The notes below the pieces were generated by a model, which saw only the letters and a program-made list of their open reading frames with translations, ran no database searches and was not told where the DNA came from. A stretch of DNA of 5,329 bases from the IMG/VR virus record IMGVR_UViG_2534682252_000027, positions 1-5,329 of that record; one strand, written 5' to 3'. The stretch comes from a virus (Duplodnaviria; Heunggongvirae; Uroviricota; Caudoviricetes). Below are positions 1-5,329 of the stretch, piece after piece. Position 1 is the first letter of the stretch. Each line of letters opens with the position of its first letter. Made by a program: the position numbers and the translations under genes.

Positions 1-200
1 GCCTTACGCCGGTCTTCTTTAATCTTGAAATACAGGTTCGTCAGATATGTCAGCAGCCCAAACAGCAGACTCCCCAGCACGCCTATTGCCGCCCACTGAG
101 ACGGGGAAACCCTGTCCAGCAACTGCAGGAACCAGTAGCCCGTTCCCACCGCTGACGTGGTGTATGACACACCTGTTGTGATTTTTTCCATCTGGTACAT
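1..200 (-). CDS. S: Class II holin (pinholin) S, S21/933W-like; start present, 3' end runs off the window
   Basis: Minus-strand translation from ATG at 198-200 gives [66 protein letters not shown]..., with two hydrophobic segments and the [13 protein letters not shown] motif I recall from phage 21 S21 / 933W S. Second in-frame ATG at 189-191 (dual-start pattern). GGAG Shine-Dalgarno in GGGAGACGGGGT just upstream. The track ORF 19..216 is a different frame of the same DNA. Confidence 0.85.
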
Positions 201-234
201 ACCCCGTCTCCCGCAATCCGGAAGCTCACAACAT

Positions 235-265
235 GAAAAAGGCCAGCAGCTGTTTACTGATGGCC
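235..265 (-). terminator. Putative intrinsic terminator between the 90-aa ORF and the holin gene
   Basis: Minus-strand RNA GGCCAUCAG-UAAACAG-CUGCUGGCC (9-bp stem with one mismatch, 7-nt loop) followed by UUUUUC. On the plus strand the same hairpin has no downstream T-run. Confidence 0.45.
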
Positions 266-276
266 CTGACTCCCCG

Positions 277-549
277 TTACAGCATCATGACCGATTCGGG
301 TTGAGGTTCAGTCGCATCGGCGACCGGTGATTCAGGCTGAACTTCACCGCTCTCTGCGGTGGTATCTCCCGCTTCAGTCGGTGGCTCTGCCTGTACACCA
401 AGCAGTTCATCCAGAATGGCATCCACTTCTGCATCAAGACGCGCTTCCAGGTTATGGCGAAGTTTCTGTTTCAGTGCGCTCCGGACTTCTTCAGAGCGCA
501 GGACGTCCTTCACTGCCTCTGCAGTGACCAGGGATGTAATTTCTGACAT
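277..549 (-). CDS. Hypothetical 90-aa acidic protein ([30 protein letters not shown]..., Glu/Asp/Pro-rich C-terminus)
   Basis: ATG at 547-549, stop TAA at 277-279. Protein-like composition with a predicted amphipathic helical N-terminal half and an acidic tail, and E. coli-like codon choice (CTG, GAA). The track's longer 148-aa version (GTG at 721-723) adds an Arg/Pro/Ser/Gly-rich N-terminus that looks like out-of-frame translation. Only a weak SD (GAGAAAA). Confidence 0.5.
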
Positions 550-589
550 GGGATTTTCTCGTCGAAAGGTGTGATTAAGAAAGTTGCCG

Positions 590-769
590 CTAAATGAGCG
601 GCTCTTCGGGTTTGCTTCCGGCTGACTGACTGGCGCTGATTTTCTCAGCGGCCCTTTTGTCAATCTGTCTGCGCCAGAAGTCACGCATGGCCCTGTACCC
701 ACCCGAAAGGAGATACAGCACACAGACCACCGTACAGAAGTACAGCATTAACTGGTTCAGAAATGTCAT
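590..769 (-). CDS. Hypothetical 59-aa small membrane protein (MTFLNQLMLYFCTVVCVLYLLSGGYRAMRDFWRRQIDKRAAEKISASQSAGSKPEEPLI)
   Basis: ATG at 767-769 preceded by GGAAAG (ACGGAAAGAAATTATG); stop TAG at 590-592. One hydrophobic helix followed by a basic then acidic tail. Below the 60-aa cutoff of the ORF track, so found by hand translation. It overlaps the implausible N-terminal extension of ORF 277..723 in another frame. Confidence 0.4.
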   Translation of the reverse strand: MTFLNQLMLYFCTVVCVLYLLSGGYRAMRDFWRRQIDKRAAEKISASQSAGSKPEEPLI

Positions 770-866
770 AATTTCTTTCCGTTATTGTTGACAATAAGAA
801 CTGTTTTCATTAAAAACCAGAGTACGAAAGTATCGTTCCTTTATTTTTTCTCCATAGGTATCACCA

Positions 867-902
867 CCGCCAGCGTCCATTCCTGTCGCTGGCGGTTTTT
901 TT
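867..902 (+). terminator. Strong plus-strand rho-independent terminator abutting the nanS-p stop codon
   Basis: CCGCCAGCG (867-875) / loop tccattcctgt / CGCTGGCGG (887-895), a 9-bp GC-rich stem followed by seven T (896-902). On the minus strand the hairpin is preceded by A7 and followed by UGGUGAUACC, so it is not a good minus-strand terminator. Confidence 0.55.
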
Positions 903-903
903 A

Positions 904-2841
904 TCATGCCGCAGTGTCTGTGCTGTTCACTTCCACCGCAATGCTGTCTATCAGTACCGGGTAAGTCGCACCTCTGGTAATGTCTGTCACATGCAGTTTA
1001 TCCGCCGCAAAGGCACTGACCGGTGACTGCGTCAGCGTGAACGGTGTGCCATCCTGACCATCAATAACCGGCGTCACCTGCAGGCTGTTATTCCCGGCAA
1101 AGCGGAAAGCCAGCGTATGCCATTCGTTATCAAATGCGCCAAAGGTTCCCAGTTTCAGGTTGTTTGTCGCCACTTTCGCATTGTGGTACATCACATTCAG
1201 GTCTTTTGCATCTGTCTGGATGTAGAACGCTGCCAGCAGGTTATTCCCCCCGTCTCCGGTCAGGGCAACGCCCTGTGGCAGTGAAGATACCGGCCAGTAA
1301 AACGCCATAACATACTGGTTCGCAGCCAGCGCTCCCGAAACCTTAAAGCGGCAGCGAATCTGCCCCCCTTTCTGTAACAGAGCCGCACCGTTGCCCGCGG
1401 CGTACTCCAGCACCCAGCTGCTTTTACCGGCTTCCTTGGTCAGCTTCACTGCCTTACCTCCGGTTCCCTCCGCATCGCTGACCACTTCTGCCCTGCCGCC
1501 ACTGGCTGACCATCCCTGTACTTTCAGGCTTCCCTCTGACTCGCTGGCAAGGTAAGAGAGCAGTGTTGTGACGCCTGTGGCTTCTGCACCGGAAGGCGAT
1601 GACGGGCGCACCTCTGATACTGTCGATGATGCCCCCGCGTTTAGCGCCACTCTTCCCGCATGGCGCAAAATCGCCGTTGCCAGACGGTCGGAAATAATCC
1701 CGCGGCGAGCCCATGAACTGAAATGGCTCGCCCTGTCCTGTGACGTCCAGGTGGCTGAGCTGTCACGCCATTTCGAACCGTAATATCCGATACCCGGAAT
1801 GTCCGGGTCTTCTTCCGGTTTGTTCGTCGGCACATTCACCCCGTTCTCATCCGTCATGAACGGTACGAAATGGATATTCTTTTCCGTTTTGTTTTTATAG
1901 CTGCCATACACCGTCTGGTACGTGGATTCGTTCTTCTGCTTCCAGAAATACGTCGTGTCCCCGCATATCCAGGGAACACCGCCAGCAGAGCCACCGACGC
2001 ACTGGCCTGCCATATCCGCCAGGTCTGCACGGAATTTATCAACCAGCGCACCAAACTGTGCGGCGTGATTTACCGGCGTACCGCCAAAATCAAATTCCCC
2101 CTGCATCCACACCACGGCAAACAGCACATTTTTCGGATTCTTCTTCAGTGCTGCTTTTGTTCGACCGATAAGGTCCTTATACAGCGGCTTGTCCACACCC
2201 CAGCGGGTTGAATTCTCCGAGGCACCACTCGCGTCACTGTATGTGCCATCGGCTCCGGTGGTGAACGCTGAACCACCACGACAGCACGGAACCAGCAGAA
2301 TGCCCGCATTCGCCGGTATAAACGGCAGCAGTTTTTTGGCGATATGCAGCCCTTGCCCCACGGTTCCGTACTGCCCCTTTGACAGGTCCGCTTTCGGATG
2401 GTTAAGGCGGCTCATGTCCTGCACATCATGCAGACAATGGTCCGCCGGAATGATGTCGTTATATTTACAGGCGACACCGCCCGGTGTCACCGTACTGCGA
2501 CGCGCTAACTGTTTAATACGTGGATCAGGGCTGTCGAATGTATCCGGCAATGGCAGTCCCTCACCGTATGACATACCATTGGACTGACCAGCAAGCGCGA
2601 TCACATAGTAATATTCTGGCGCAACAGAAGGCGCTGAGGTCGTCGGACGGTTGCCTGGCTCCTCTGGTGATGAGATGCTCCCCTCACTCACAACTGGCTG
2701 GATGAACTCCGCACCATAACCAGCTGTCGAAATCAGCGCACTACCATAAGGCTGCCACCCTTCCTTCAGTTTTTGAGTTATTCGTTTCGCAAGGTCTGAC
2801 GGCGACGCCGCCCTGACAACATCATAGTGTTTAAATGCCAT
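904..2841 (-). CDS. nanS: Prophage-encoded sialate (9-O-acetyl-N-acetylneuraminic acid) O-acetylesterase, NanS-p type; N-terminal DUF1737-like region + SASA/SGNH esterase domain + C-terminal domain
   Basis: 645-aa ORF with ATG at 2839-2841 preceded by GGGAGGA; double stop TGATAA. N-terminus MAFKHYDVVRAASPSDLAKRITQKLKEGWQPYG and esterase motif YYYVIALAGQSNGMSYG (catalytic Ser in GQSN) match my recollection of the 645-aa NanS-p proteins found downstream of stx in Stx phages such as 933W. Position upstream of the lysis cassette is the same. Confidence 0.9.
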   Translation of the reverse strand: MAFKHYDVVRAASPSDLAKRITQKLKEGWQPYGSALISTAGYGAEFIQPVVSEGSISSPEEPGNRPTTSAPSVAPEYYYVIALAGQSNGMSYGEGLPLPDTFDSPDPRIKQLARRSTVTPGGVACKYNDIIPADHCLHDVQDMSRLNHPKADLSKGQYGTVGQGLHIAKKLLPFIPANAGILLVPCCRGGSAFTTGADGTYSDASGASENSTRWGVDKPLYKDLIGRTKAALKKNPKNVLFAVVWMQGEFDFGGTPVNHAAQFGALVDKFRADLADMAGQCVGGSAGGVPWICGDTTYFWKQKNESTYQTVYGSYKNKTEKNIHFVPFMTDENGVNVPTNKPEEDPDIPGIGYYGSKWRDSSATWTSQDRASHFSSWARRGIISDRLATAILRHAGRVALNAGASSTVSEVRPSSPSGAEATGVTTLLSYLASESEGSLKVQGWSASGGRAEVVSDAEGTGGKAVKLTKEAGKSSWVLEYAAGNGAALLQKGGQIRCRFKVSGALAANQYVMAFYWPVSSLPQGVALTGDGGNNLLAAFYIQTDAKDLNVMYHNAKVATNNLKLGTFGAFDNEWHTLAFRFAGNNSLQVTPVIDGQDGTPFTLTQSPVSAFAADKLHVTDITRGATYPVLIDSIAVEVNSTDTAA

Positions 2842-3034
2842 GAATCCTCCCGGCCGGGATAATATTGTGAGTAAAATAAGGAGCGGGCTGAAGTCCGGAA
2901 GTTACAGGACAATGGCAGAAGGGAGACTACAGCCCGCAATTCGAAAAAGGTCGCGCAGTTGCGCAGAGTGATTACTATAGGGTATTATTCGCCAGCTGAA
3001 ATATTACTTCACGTTTCATTGTTTATTCCTTGCC

Positions 3035-3062
3035 GCCCGCGTCTCCCAGCGCGGGCTTTTTT
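3035..3062 (+). terminator. Plus-strand rho-independent terminator
   Basis: GCCCGCG (3035-3041) / loop tctcccag / CGCGGGC (3050-3056), a 7-bp all-GC stem followed by TTTTTT (3057-3062). No U-run follows it on the minus strand. Confidence 0.55.
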
Positions 3063-3066
3063 GTCC

Positions 3067-3093
3067 ATAAGAAAGCCCCTCCGGAGAGGGGCT
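3067..3093 (-). terminator. Minus-strand intrinsic terminator, convergent with the 3035-3062 terminator
   Basis: Minus-strand RNA AGCCCCUC-UCCG-GAGGGGCU (8-bp stem, 4-nt loop; plus coordinates 3074-3093) followed by UUCUUAU (3067-3073). Confidence 0.45.
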
Positions 3094-3510
3094 GGAGAGT
3101 GGCGCTATGTGCCATTGCATGGTGCCGGGTGCCTCCCGGTGAATTCAGTATCAGCACCTGAATCCGCGATTATCACATATACCTGGTTGCTGATTGCCCC
3201 TCCGCACAGGGGGATTCACCATGCAGTAGTATTTTTAATAAACAGTAAACAAAAAAATCAAGCATTATGCAGGCTGTTTCTTTTTATCACCGGCCACAGC
3301 AATACCACAATGCCGCAGACCAGAGCGCCATCAGTCAGTACCAACATTATCCTGCTGGTGAAATCCATCATCACCATCACTAAAAGCAGGATCACAACAG
3401 CAAGCAGACACAGTTTATAAAACAATGTTCAGAAAACGCATTCAGCATGCCTAAGGTTCTATTCCTACGAATAGCCAACTTGCAACTTAAAATATTATTT
3501 ATGCAGCCAA

Positions 3511-4269
3511 TTAAATTCTGGTCCTTACAATATCAACCTGAAGATTCTTATCTTGTGCTGATTGATAAATCACAAACCTTTTACTACCTGCATTGAAAGA
3601 AGTAGACAAAACCAGACAATTATCATAACGAGCAAGAACATAATACCAACCATCATTATAATTAATCATTTCATATTCTTTCTTAAACTGTGGTTTGTAA
3701 TATCCTGTCAGAAATGAAAAAAGCCAGAAATATGCCACAAAAGCAATCATCACAATCTCAAAAAAATGCTTTTTTATAAATGGCTTATCATAGAAGCATG
3801 ATACCGATAAAAATCGCCCATAAGATCTTATCGAAGTTGTAACCGCCAGCGCAATCGCTGCTGACAGTAGCAAAAGAGGTACCTGAATCTTCTGTCTCAA
3901 TATAGAAAACTCAATAATTGCCGGCACAAACAATAATTCCACAGCAAAATAAAGGCGAAATACATTTAGCTCTTGCATAGAATGTTTTCTTTTCACTGCG
4001 AAAAAGAATACAACACCAATACCCCAACCGATAAGAAATATAGCAATGACGATAACTGCAAAAAATAAACTTCTGGCAACATCATCAACACCTGCACCTA
4101 CAATCCACCATGGGAAGCCGTAGTAAAAAGAAGTACCCCATCCATAGAAATAAGCACTCCCCCATCCAAGGCATCCCATGTAGGCAATAAAAAGTGAAGA
4201 ACTCCTGAGCAGCGCACCATCCTTCATAACCACCCCAATACAAGATGATAACATTGGCTTACAACTCAT
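3511..4269 (-). CDS. Hypothetical AT-rich polytopic inner-membrane protein (~5 predicted TM helices + ~60-aa hydrophilic C-terminal tail); family not recognised; cargo (moron) gene in the Q-to-lysis slot
   Basis: Longest ORF is 252 aa from ATG 4267-4269, which has no SD. The in-frame ATG at 4225-4227 (Met15) follows GGGGTGG and is the more likely start (238 aa). Hydrophobic stretches: LFIAYMGCLGWG, LFFAVIVIAIFLIGWGIGVVFFFAV, VFRLYFAVELLFVPAIIEFSIL, VPLLLLSAAIALAVTTSI, FFEIVMIAFVAYFWLFSFLTG. Hand-counted 60-nt samples are about 32-33% G+C, against about 47-65% in nanS-p samples. It lies immediately downstream of the lambda-like late promoter. Confidence 0.75.
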   Translation of the reverse strand: MSCKPMLSSCIGVVMKDGALLRSSSLFIAYMGCLGWGSAYFYGWGTSFYYGFPWWIVGAGVDDVARSLFFAVIVIAIFLIGWGIGVVFFFAVKRKHSMQELNVFRLYFAVELLFVPAIIEFSILRQKIQVPLLLLSAAIALAVTTSIRSYGRFLSVSCFYDKPFIKKHFFEIVMIAFVAYFWLFSFLTGYYKPQFKKEYEMINYNDGWYYVLARYDNCLVLSTSFNAGSKRFVIYQSAQDKNLQVDIVRTRI

Positions 4270-4429
4270 AACAAAAGCAATTCAATGCCGTCAAGAGGTT
4301 ACAGGCTAAAAAAACTCTATTACATTGCAGTCAGCATGTTTACTACACAAATACAATTCAGAGCATAAAAACTACTCGGCGGCAGGTTATTGAGACTCAT
4401 CAATGACATGTAAAAAACGCCCATTATTG

Positions 4430-4470
4430 GTGTCAAGTTTCCCCAAAGTTATTCAAAAAGTCAATATTAT
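4430..4470 (-). promoter_or_regulatory. Lambda-like late promoter pR' with presumed Q-utilisation (qut) region
   Basis: Minus strand TTGACT (4459-4464) - 17 bp TTTTGAATAACTTTGGG - GAAACT (4436-4441) - TGACACCAATAATGGG. This aligns with lambda pR' as I recall it (TTGACT TATTGAATAAAATTGGG TAAATT TGACTCAACGATGGG). It sits about 45 bp after the Q stop, as in lambda. The -10 hexamer is diverged. Confidence 0.5.
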
Positions 4471-4506
4471 GCCGTTAATATGTTGCCATCCGTGGCAATC
4501 ATGGCG

Positions 4507-5130
4507 CTAACGTGTGATCGCATTCAAAATGTTGTCTGCGATTGACTCTTCCTTGTGGCATTGCACAACCAGAGCGTCATACAGCGGCTTAACAGTGCGT
4601 GACCAGGTGGGTTGGGTAAGGTTTGGGATTAGCATCGTCACAGCGCGATATGCGGCGCTTGCTGGCATTCTTGAATAACCGACGCCTTTACATCTTCCGC
4701 ACTCTTTCTCAGCAACTATCCCCCACTGCTCTGTTTTGGCTATATCAACCGCACGGCCTGTACCGTGGCAATCTCTGCATCTTGCGCCCGGCGTAGCGGC
4801 ACTACGGCAATAATCCGCATAAGCGAATGTTGCGAGCACTTGCAGTACCTTTGCCTTAGTATTTCCTTCAAGCTTTGCCACGCCACGGTATTTCCCCGAT
4901 ACCTTGTGTGCAAATTGCATCAGATAGTTGATAGCCTTTTGTTTGTCGTTCTGGCTTAGTTCATGCTTACCGCAGAATGCAGCCATTCCGAATCCGGCTT
5001 GTGATTGCGCCATCCCCATAGCAGCCATCACATCAGTACCGGAAAGAGAGTCAGAAGCCGTGGCCCGTGGTGAGTCGCTCATCATCGGGCTTTTTGGCGA
5101 ATGAAATTTAGCTACGCTTTCGAGTCTCAT
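4507..5130 (-). CDS. Q: Late-gene antitermination protein Q (lambda-type)
   Basis: 207 aa, [44 protein letters not shown]...[12 protein letters not shown]...[21 protein letters not shown]...[13 protein letters not shown]. Near-identical over its full length to lambda Q as I recall it, including the Cys-rich zinc-binding motifs. ATG at 5128-5130, stop TAG at 4507-4509. Confidence 0.93.
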
Positions 5131-5329
5131 GCGCCTTCTCCCTGTACCTGAATCAATGTGAGGTTTCCGCAGAACACTGCGCCGGTATCTATATACATCT
5201 GGTTGGCAAATTTGAGTGGTTTCACTGCTGGCGTATGACCAAAGATGAACGTGTCCGCGCCTTTGATTTCTTTCACGATCCCGTCTTGTGAGTTGCTGAT
5301 TCGTTCGCGGTTCCAGATTACCTGCTGAT
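5127..5329 (-). CDS. ninI: Ser/Thr protein phosphatase, lambda NinI (orf221)-like; C-terminal fragment, 5' end outside the window
   Basis: Minus-strand frame ending at TGA 5127-5129 translates to ...[66 protein letters not shown]. The GHTP motif and the position immediately upstream of Q match the lambda nin region. Its stop overlaps the Q start in ATGA. Confidence 0.8.

Follow-up and report, generated by a model that had tools for sequence, protein, structure and literature searches.

The window analysed here is a whole 5,329-nucleotide stretch of viral DNA (Caudoviricetes; IMG/VR record IMGVR_UViG_2534682252_000027), and it corresponds to the full 5329-bp draft contig AMTQ01000045.1 (GCA_000302735.1) in reverse-complemented form. 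We interpret it as the late-regulatory and moron region of a lambdoid prophage of the type found in Shiga toxin-producing and enteropathogenic Escherichia coli (STEC/EPEC), in which a lambda-type antiterminator Q is predicted to read through an exchangeable cargo slot and in which the alleles were joined by a crossover inside the small RNA (sRNA) gene STnc100; we put the probability of this reading at roughly 0.85. None of the observations contradicts this architecture, which is already known and very common, and the particular combination of alleles is one more recombinant at a conserved sRNA linker.

Every substantial open reading frame (ORF) lies on the minus strand, and from 5329 to 1 the order is the C-terminus of NinI, Q, a lambda-type late promoter pR' with its Q utilization site (qut), a low-GC membrane-protein gene, a DUF3927 gene, STnc100, nanS-p, a DUF1378 gene, a DUF826 gene and a pinholin gene. 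This is the module order of a Shiga toxin (Stx) 2a prophage, in which Q is followed by three tRNAs, stx2AB, STnc100, the sRNA AsxR, nanS-p, DUF1378, DUF826 and the holin gene S. The moron site is the position that the tRNAs and stxAB occupy in Stx phages. The cargo found there in the window is a cassette rather than a single gene, and comprises the PF27470 ("TfpB") protein, a DUF3927/TciB-like peptide, STnc100 and a candidate convergent sRNA.

Crossover within STnc100 and the integrity of the contig

The crossover was mapped by a three-way alignment across positions 3500..2700 of the window, the corresponding prophage of E. coli O157:H7 and the stx-negative Traversvirus phi296 (PV189400). All of the informative sites between 3500 and 3143 (218/218) are of the O157-prophage type, and all of those between 3114 and 2700 (155/155) are of the phi296/Stx-phage type. 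The switch falls within 27 bp, CACCGGGAGGCACCCGGCACCATGCAA (3141..3115), that the two parents have in common and that lie in the conserved core of STnc100. This is a textbook case of a single, clean homologous crossover, which joined a Q-cargo module of the O157/E2348 type to a nanS-p-lysis module of the Stx-phage/phi296 type. The sRNA gene itself is accordingly chimeric, with a 5' part of the O157-prophage type and a 3' part of the phi296/Stx-phage type. As a result of the crossover, a nanS-p allele of the Stx-phage type stands beside an O157-type cargo: the nanS-p protein shares 99.4-99.7% of its residues with the alleles of Stx2a prophages and phi296, as against 53% with the O157/434 allele that is usually linked to this cargo. 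A conserved sRNA core of only 27 bp suffices for the swapping of whole modules between toxin-carrying and toxin-free phages.

The initial annotation had described Q and NinI as lambda-like, the holin as belonging to the S21 pinholin type and the region as a mosaic, all of which is borne out: Q is identical to lambda Q at 203 of 207 residues (98.1%), the NinI fragment belongs to phrog_246, the DNA of this part is 96.4% identical to lambda, the holin is recognized by the phage 21 holin family (Table 1), and lambda-, 434/O157- and Stx-phage-type segments follow one another in the window. The accompanying picture of a lambda-versus-21 mosaic, however, has to be replaced, as the boundaries lie elsewhere. 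The match to lambda is limited to window 5329..4432 (lambda 43687-44584) and ends near the transcription start of pR', the 434-type segment covers 4388..3196, and the Stx-phage-type sequence begins inside STnc100, at the 27-bp core. The pairing of a lambda-type Q with a class II holin, noted there as part of the mosaic, proved to be routine, with the same order being found in O157:H7, in coliphage 2B8 and, without the esterase, in the EPEC strain E2348/69. As regards collinearity with a single known phage, the gene order including the cargo is indeed collinear with known phages, but no single record is collinear at the nucleotide level, because of the mere 53% identity of the nanS-p protein to the O157/434 allele.

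A short identical segment is exactly where the switch occurs, and the window equals an entire 5329-bp draft contig with repeats at both ends; this is what might be expected if two prophages of the same strain, one of the O157 type with the cargo and one of the phi296/Stx type, had been mis-joined at the STnc100 core during assembly and no recombinant existed in vivo. The join is also found in none of 5426 complete genomes, in which the best full-length match reaches 86%. However, three different, independent NCBI draft assemblies (GCA_000302735.1, GCA_012731875.1 and GCA_043794665.1) contain the same join at 99.9% identity, and this makes an assembly chimera unlikely. Furthermore, most current assemblers use k-mers longer than 27 bp, and their contigs break at repeats instead of bridging them. 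Taken together, these points leave the chimera as a very improbable explanation. A different doubt concerns whether the region might belong to a defective, cryptic prophage remnant, whose layout would have no present function. Many degraded lambdoid prophages are present in the genomes of enterohaemorrhagic E. coli (EHEC), per genome the window has a median of 2 matching places and as many as 18, insertion sequence (IS) elements and a truncated endolysin gene come after the O157:H7 counterpart, and our view is confined to the 5.3 kb. We nevertheless regard a remnant as improbable, given that all eight ORFs of the window are intact and of full length, save for those cut at the contig ends, and that the right-hand module is 99.65% identical to phi296, which was deposited as a complete phage genome. 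In addition, a 99.9%-identical extension of the sequence in a second draft assembly shows the holin gene to be followed by an intact-looking gene for a PF00959 lysozyme. The N-terminus of this lysozyme, YGLSAVVLALIAAGASAP, is an Ala/Gly-rich hydrophobic segment that is similar in appearance to a signal-anchor-release (SAR) sequence.

Several points weigh against our reading of the window as an STnc100 recombinant with a functional cargo slot. The draft contig is short, and the exact recombinant is present on no long contig or complete genome. The variant -10 element of pR', GAAACT, is predicted to be weaker than that of lambda. With respect to the functional part, the cargo protein has no match in NCBIfam and none in the scanned Pfam set, which lacked the PF27470 model, and a profile search of PDB sequences with this protein returned none at E<=10. 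Structure searches with its model recovered generic helical bundles only, and no PADLOC-DB family matched the cargo, TciB-like, nanS-p, DUF1378 or DUF826 proteins at E<=0.1.

Table 1. Features of the 5,329-nucleotide window, from position 5329 to position 1
Feature	Position	Strand	Evidence
NinI-type Ser/Thr phosphatase, C-terminal fragment cut by the contig end	5127..5329	-	phrog_246, E=3.5e-31; stop overlaps Q start
Lambda-type late antiterminator Q, 207 aa	4507..5130	-	PF03589, E=1.2e-57, 192.5 bits against a cut-off of 26.7
Predicted pR' late promoter with lambda-type qut	4420..4464	-	alignment with lambda 44552-44595
Decayed leader-terminator remnant, 4-bp stem and U5	4367..4385	-	-2.2 kcal/mol, z about 0
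Candidate cargo (moron) promoters	4245..4294	-	consensus scan and direct reading
Cargo gene 1, PF27470 ("TfpB") inner-membrane protein, 238 aa	3511..4227	-	phrog_1521, E=1e-153; PF27470 label
Cargo gene 2, DUF3927/TciB-like small membrane peptide, 55 aa, TTG start	3258..3425	-	PF13064, E=1.4e-13; phrog_1470, E=2.7e-19
STnc100-family sRNA gene, chimeric	3063..3250	-	RF02076, 140.3 bits (gathering score 47), model positions 1-206/206
Candidate anti-sRNA-like gene, convergent, at the AgvB/AsxR site, ~69 nt	2996..3064	+	terminator scan; fold -18.7 kcal/mol, z=-3.4
nanS-p sialate O-acetylesterase, 645 aa	904..2841	-	DUF1737, SASA and DUF6645 domains
DUF1378 protein, 59 aa	590..769	-	PF07125, E=2e-39; gene call in source contig
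DUF826 protein, 90 aa	277..549	-	PF05696, E=1e-28
Class II holin (phage 21/933W pinholin type), truncated by the contig end	1..200	-	PF04971 "Bacteriophage P21 holin S", E=2.4e-32

The cargo cassette and its putative convergent sRNA pair

The initial annotation had noted the Stx-phage gene order with a cargo in the position of stx, together with the absence of stx and tRNA genes, and both statements stand. With Stx2A/B as queries the best tblastn match had E=3.2, a blastn search with the tRNA-stx2AB slot gave no match, the cargo has no match to the RIP or SLT_beta families of Pfam, and neither ARAGORN nor Rfam found a tRNA in the window; on these negatives, a remnant of stx or of a tRNA in the slot was rejected. 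Its view of the cargo gene as an alternative occupant of the toxin slot was right about the position, but the occupant is not one gene and the idea had already been published (PMC4104026). The DUF3927/TciB-like ORF, STnc100 and the convergent sRNA-like element had been missed. The distance of 237 bp that it gave between Q and the cargo is correct when counted from the first ATG (4269), which had been assumed to be the start, but becomes 279 bp when counted from the conserved Met at 4227. The ORF is longest when begun at 4269 (252 codons), a start of the style of the Prokaryotic Genome Annotation Pipeline (PGAP) lies at 4254, and the Met that is conserved in homologs, at 4227, is preceded by GGGGTGG. 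With this Met as the start, the protein has the length given in Table 1 and the spacer from Q takes the larger value. For annotation it is useful to treat the cargo as a TfpB/DUF3927 cassette with its sRNAs and to begin its first gene at 4227.

The PF27470 label is a precomputed one, borne by the identical gene call of the source contig and by all 104 homolog clusters. The cargo protein differs from WP_001302581.1, which is found in O157:H7, E2348/69 and phage 434, by one substitution (I140T), and the DUF3927 peptide is identical to the DUF3927 protein of O157:H7. An AlphaFold2 model based on a 44-sequence alignment (predicted local distance difference test score, pLDDT, 79.9; predicted template modelling score, pTM, 0.73) has five long transmembrane helices and a C-terminal five-stranded β domain, which is likely to be periplasmic in the model if the positive-inside rule is applied to its charge counts. 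Profile searches of 1.84 billion proteins delineated a family with 75 representatives at 50% identity, which is present in Enterobacteriaceae and has distant relatives in Pasteurellaceae and Neisseria; all the homologs are either unnamed or labelled "hypothetical". A literature search retrieved nothing relevant on TfpB, TciB, DUF3927 or the protein accessions, and the origin of the Pfam name "TfpB" was not traced in it.

In its composition the cargo has the characteristics of a moron, as it has been added among conserved phage genes and deviates from them in GC content (31-38%, versus 50-54% in the flanks). The cassette is absent from the same site in lambda, strain 122 and phi296. Phages 434 and 2B8 carry it, as do 682 of the 5426 complete E. 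coli genomes, and among EHEC/EPEC prophages the gene pair is very common. Coverage of the junction between the lambda-type Q and the cargo reaches at least 80% in 572 genomes, and those listed as the best matches (O157:H7, O26 and O103) have it at 100% identity. The cassette might be a lysogenic-conversion moron. Our best guess, held with low confidence, is that the cargo could act at the cell envelope, for example in superinfection exclusion.

Homologs of the cargo protein also occur in rather different settings. A PF27470 homolog of 59% identity is present on more than 1000 contigs of the enterotoxigenic E. coli (ETEC) type (gene 5001-5714), where it is situated ~870 bp from eltA/eltB, the genes for heat-labile enterotoxin, and is transcribed divergently from them, with the STb gene and IS elements nearby. 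Another, of 46% identity and with 2681 member sequences, adjoins on a Salmonella contig (gene 5001-5717) a divergently oriented gene for a 408-aa protein with Sif and GDSL-lipase regions that resembles the effector SseJ; this context is chromosomal and non-prophage, and has no STnc100 nearby. In Yersinia enterocolitica, a 45%-identical homolog begins exactly 279 bp past the stop of a Q of an unrelated family (PF06530). This spacing equals that in the window, but the intergenic sequences do not align.

The downstream boundary of the cassette is formed by a convergent sRNA pair typical of the moron site, with STnc100 in the sense orientation and the candidate on the opposite strand. STnc100 begins 8 bases past the DUF3927 peptide ORF and ends in an intrinsic terminator (3093..3074; hairpin of -17.3 kcal/mol), which is the first strong terminator downstream of pR'. 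It directly follows stx2B in the Stx2a prophage and the tRNAs in phi296, and has been reported 75 nt downstream of stx2 (PMC12370729). The convergent candidate has a hairpin in its 5' part and, at 3035..3056, a GC-rich terminator with U6 behind it; a possible promoter (TTGCGC, 18 nt, TATTAT) lies upstream. It is identical in strain 122 and phi296, and shares its position and terminator architecture with AgvB of the O157:H7 prophage and AsxR of the Stx2a prophage, which at the equivalent position score 96.5 and 88.1 bits, respectively, with their own covariance models. Within window 2850..3300, neither of these models (RF02702 for AgvB and RF02703 for AsxR) gave a match even at E<=10. We consider 2996..3064, as judged from its sequence, to be a candidate third variant of the anti-sRNA in the AgvB/AsxR position. 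A number of weak Rfam matches (snoZ30, anti-hemB, OmrA-B and others) were dismissed as being due to chance or driven by terminators.

In 434 (locus 4598-4860), 2B8 and E2348/69 (locus 5115-5400), tciB is followed by a divergent sRNA, which has only a 5' "GCATGGTGAATCC" box in common and is not called STnc100 by Rfam. According to a 2026 preprint, STnc100 is related to the PasD sRNAs, and these sRNAs are linked to Q and esterase genes. From this published synteny, the divergent sRNA of these three is probably of the PasD type.

Q, pR' and transcription of the cargo

The window Q differs from lambda Q by L135Q, R138I, V140A and V205I, and is identical to the Q of E2348/69. The pR' region is identical in O157, E2348/69 and 2B8, and its predicted elements are a -35 sequence TTGACT (4464..4459), identical to that of lambda, a 17-nt spacer with the Q-binding element (QBE), and GAAACT (4441..4436) as the -10 sequence, where lambda has TAAATT. 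Transcription would start at about 4429, and a second -10-like sequence, AATAAT, lies at 4428..4423, corresponding to approximately +2..+7 of the pR' transcript. Homology to lambda pR' suggests that promoter activity and pausing are likewise retained. Three of the differences from lambda Q cluster in codons 135-140 (4717..4735; L135Q, R138I and V140A), and the QBE (4442..4458) also shows three substitutions relative to lambda. The O157 and E2348/69 prophages have the same Q cluster and the same QBE as the window, and phage 2B8 has the same QBE with a variant cluster (L135Q, W136L and V140A, with R138 kept). The changes in the Q cluster and the QBE may represent protein-DNA co-variation.

By homology to lambda, Q would load onto RNA polymerase at the cognate pR'/qut that closely follows its gene, and by the same analogy might render the polymerase resistant to terminators. 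Late transcription would then run through the moron site to nanS-p, DUF1378, DUF826 and a lysis cassette of pinholin and putative SAR endolysin. A terminator scan detected no terminator-like site on the minus strand between 4507 and 3094. Phage 434 has a terminator before the same cassette (434 locus 3482-3507; -12.5 kcal/mol, U8, z=-3.5), and its ortholog has decayed to a hairpin of -2.2 kcal/mol in the versions linked to a lambda-type Q, namely those of the window, O157 and 2B8. A hidden tR' between pR' and the cargo was rejected, as there was no site in the scan, the fold of the leader was not better than that of shuffled sequences (z=-0.17) and the candidate hairpin reached only the above -2.2 kcal/mol.

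Two promoter-like arrangements are found directly 5' of the cargo ORF. The first candidate consists of TTGACG (4294..4289), an 18-nt spacer and TGtTATGAG (4273..4265), and the second of TTGTTA (4274..4269), 18 nt and TATCAT (4250..4245), with a TG just before the latter. The stretch TTGACG...TTGTTATG is also conserved ahead of the ETEC homolog of 59% identity, where DNA homology extends ~70 bp 5' of the ORF, to window 4298. Under the moron concept (Juhala et al. 2000, as cited in PMC4104026), the signals found at the level of sequence are these promoter-like sites at 4294..4245 and the STnc100 terminator downstream. The cassette might hence be expressed from a promoter of its own, from pR' or from both; expression from pR' is possible because there is no convincing terminator between it and the cassette.

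How the cassette is expressed can be read in more than one way. The cargo could be a strictly late, Q-dependent gene set that is induced only in the manner of stx2, instead of a moron expressed in the lysogen. It lies in the sense orientation downstream of pR' with no gene in between, and the good terminator before the same cassette in phage 434 would make it Q-dependent in that phage. On the other hand, this terminator has decayed in the window, O157 and 2B8 until it is no better than shuffled sequence, the promoter-like sites directly 5' of the ORF are conserved beside the non-phage ETEC homolog, and morons with their own expression signals typically show such a strongly deviant GC content. 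We consider strictly late expression unlikely on balance, if still deserving of serious attention. With the leader terminator decayed in the lambda-Q-linked versions and intact in 434, pR' transcription in lysogens could reach the STnc100 terminator. It is conceivable, though we hold it to be rather doubtful, that such transcription runs through tfpB and tciB and stops only there. The cargo would then be a constitutive pR' "leader", STnc100 would be the product of the 3' end of the transcript and functionally equivalent to lambda 6S RNA or StxS, and its terminator would be the real tR', to be overcome by Q for the expression of nanS-p and the lysis genes.

Neighbouring genes and comparison with known phages

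The NinI gene, the DNA of which is 97.5-98.5% identical to the NinI genes of strain 122, 434 and Stx2a prophages, is also called in the annotation of the source contig. The 90-aa form of the DUF826 gene is called in the source contig, in strain 122 and in the Stx2a prophage, and a longer GTG-initiated ORF from 723 is probably not used. The holin gene retains 66 of 71 codons, matches profile positions 1-62/64, has a dual-start MYQM motif and is identical over the 66 aa to the 71-aa holin of strain 122. A 41-codon ORF (782..907, minus strand) overlaps the nanS-p stop and was annotated as a gene both in the source assembly and in phi296; it has no family match and is probably spurious. The plus-strand segment 827..904, antisense and directly downstream of the nanS-p stop, was matched by Rfam over the full length of Esr41, an sRNA of EHEC, but only weakly (28 bits, with a gathering score of 102; E=0.027). 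At its end lie a small hairpin and a T-run (883..895). This element may be a divergent relative of Esr41 or only a terminator.

The closest counterpart of the left-hand part is a prophage of O157:H7 ATCC 35150 (NZ_CP038405.1, ~1,230,280-1,235,440), which matches window 5329..2734 in one contiguous alignment (95.2%). Successive elements in it are NinG, NinI, a lambda-type Q, an identical pR'/qut, the PF27470 protein, DUF3927, STnc100, AgvB, an esterase and a class II holin. It differs from the window in the 53%-identical esterase, in having AgvB as the antisense sRNA, in lacking DUF1378 and DUF826, and in another 3' type of STnc100. Counterparts of this type are present in E2348/69, O26 and O103 as well, and in E2348/69 the same order of NinI, lambda-type Q, cargo, DUF3927, sRNA and holin occurs without the esterase. 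Coliphages 2B8 (NC_049952) and 434 (OL657226), of the genus Alegriavirus, have the same cassette between Q and a SASA esterase with pinholin and endolysin. 2B8 has a lambda-type Q and pR' like those of the window and matches window 5328..3196 at 97.6%. 434 matches window 4388..3196 at 96.8%, with the cassette lying within the annotated "434B nonhomology" region, and differs in having a Q82-like antiterminator and in keeping the strong terminator before the cargo; no paper on the late region of phage 434 turned up in a literature search. Both phages further differ from the window in lacking DUF1378 and DUF826 and in their esterase, which has ~71% DNA identity and, in 2B8, is interrupted by an IS element.

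The right-hand part matches Stx2a phages and prophages and phi296, which cover window 3148..1 or 2966..1 at 97-99.7% and share with it the 3' part of STnc100, the convergent sRNA, nanS-p, DUF1378, DUF826, the pinholin and the boundaries of the slot. The module of nanS-p, DUF1378, DUF826 and S downstream of the slot agrees at 98.7-99.7% with Stx2a prophages and phi296. In contrast to the window, they have a 163-aa antiterminator Q family protein, and in place of TfpB/TciB their slot holds three tRNA genes, accompanied by stx2AB or by nothing. The tRNA genes, of the ileZ/argN/argO type, are found together with stx2AB in the Stx2a prophage (three tRNAs) and alone in phi296, and strain 122 has one tRNA in the slot. 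Lambda (J02459, 43.2-46.5 kb) resembles the window in NinI, Q and the pR' -35 and QBE region, with homology ending at about the transcription start. Beyond this point it differs in having 6S RNA with tR', orf-64, the class I holin S105/S107 and a soluble endolysin, and it has no cargo, esterase or pinholin.

The pR' moron insertion site was described by Tree et al. (2014) as consisting of Q, pR', a moron coding sequence, a convergent sRNA pair and a conserved phage ORF (PMC4104026). In that work, one of the occupants is Stx2, in Sp5, and Sp3, Sp4, Sp9, Sp10, Sp11, Sp15 and Sp17 are arranged alike (PMC4104026). The window has in principle the same arrangement, with an antisense member that falls outside the AgvB and AsxR models. 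The region is a further illustration that lambdoid prophages have, downstream of Q and pR', a slot for exchangeable cargo with conserved sRNA genes as its boundaries.

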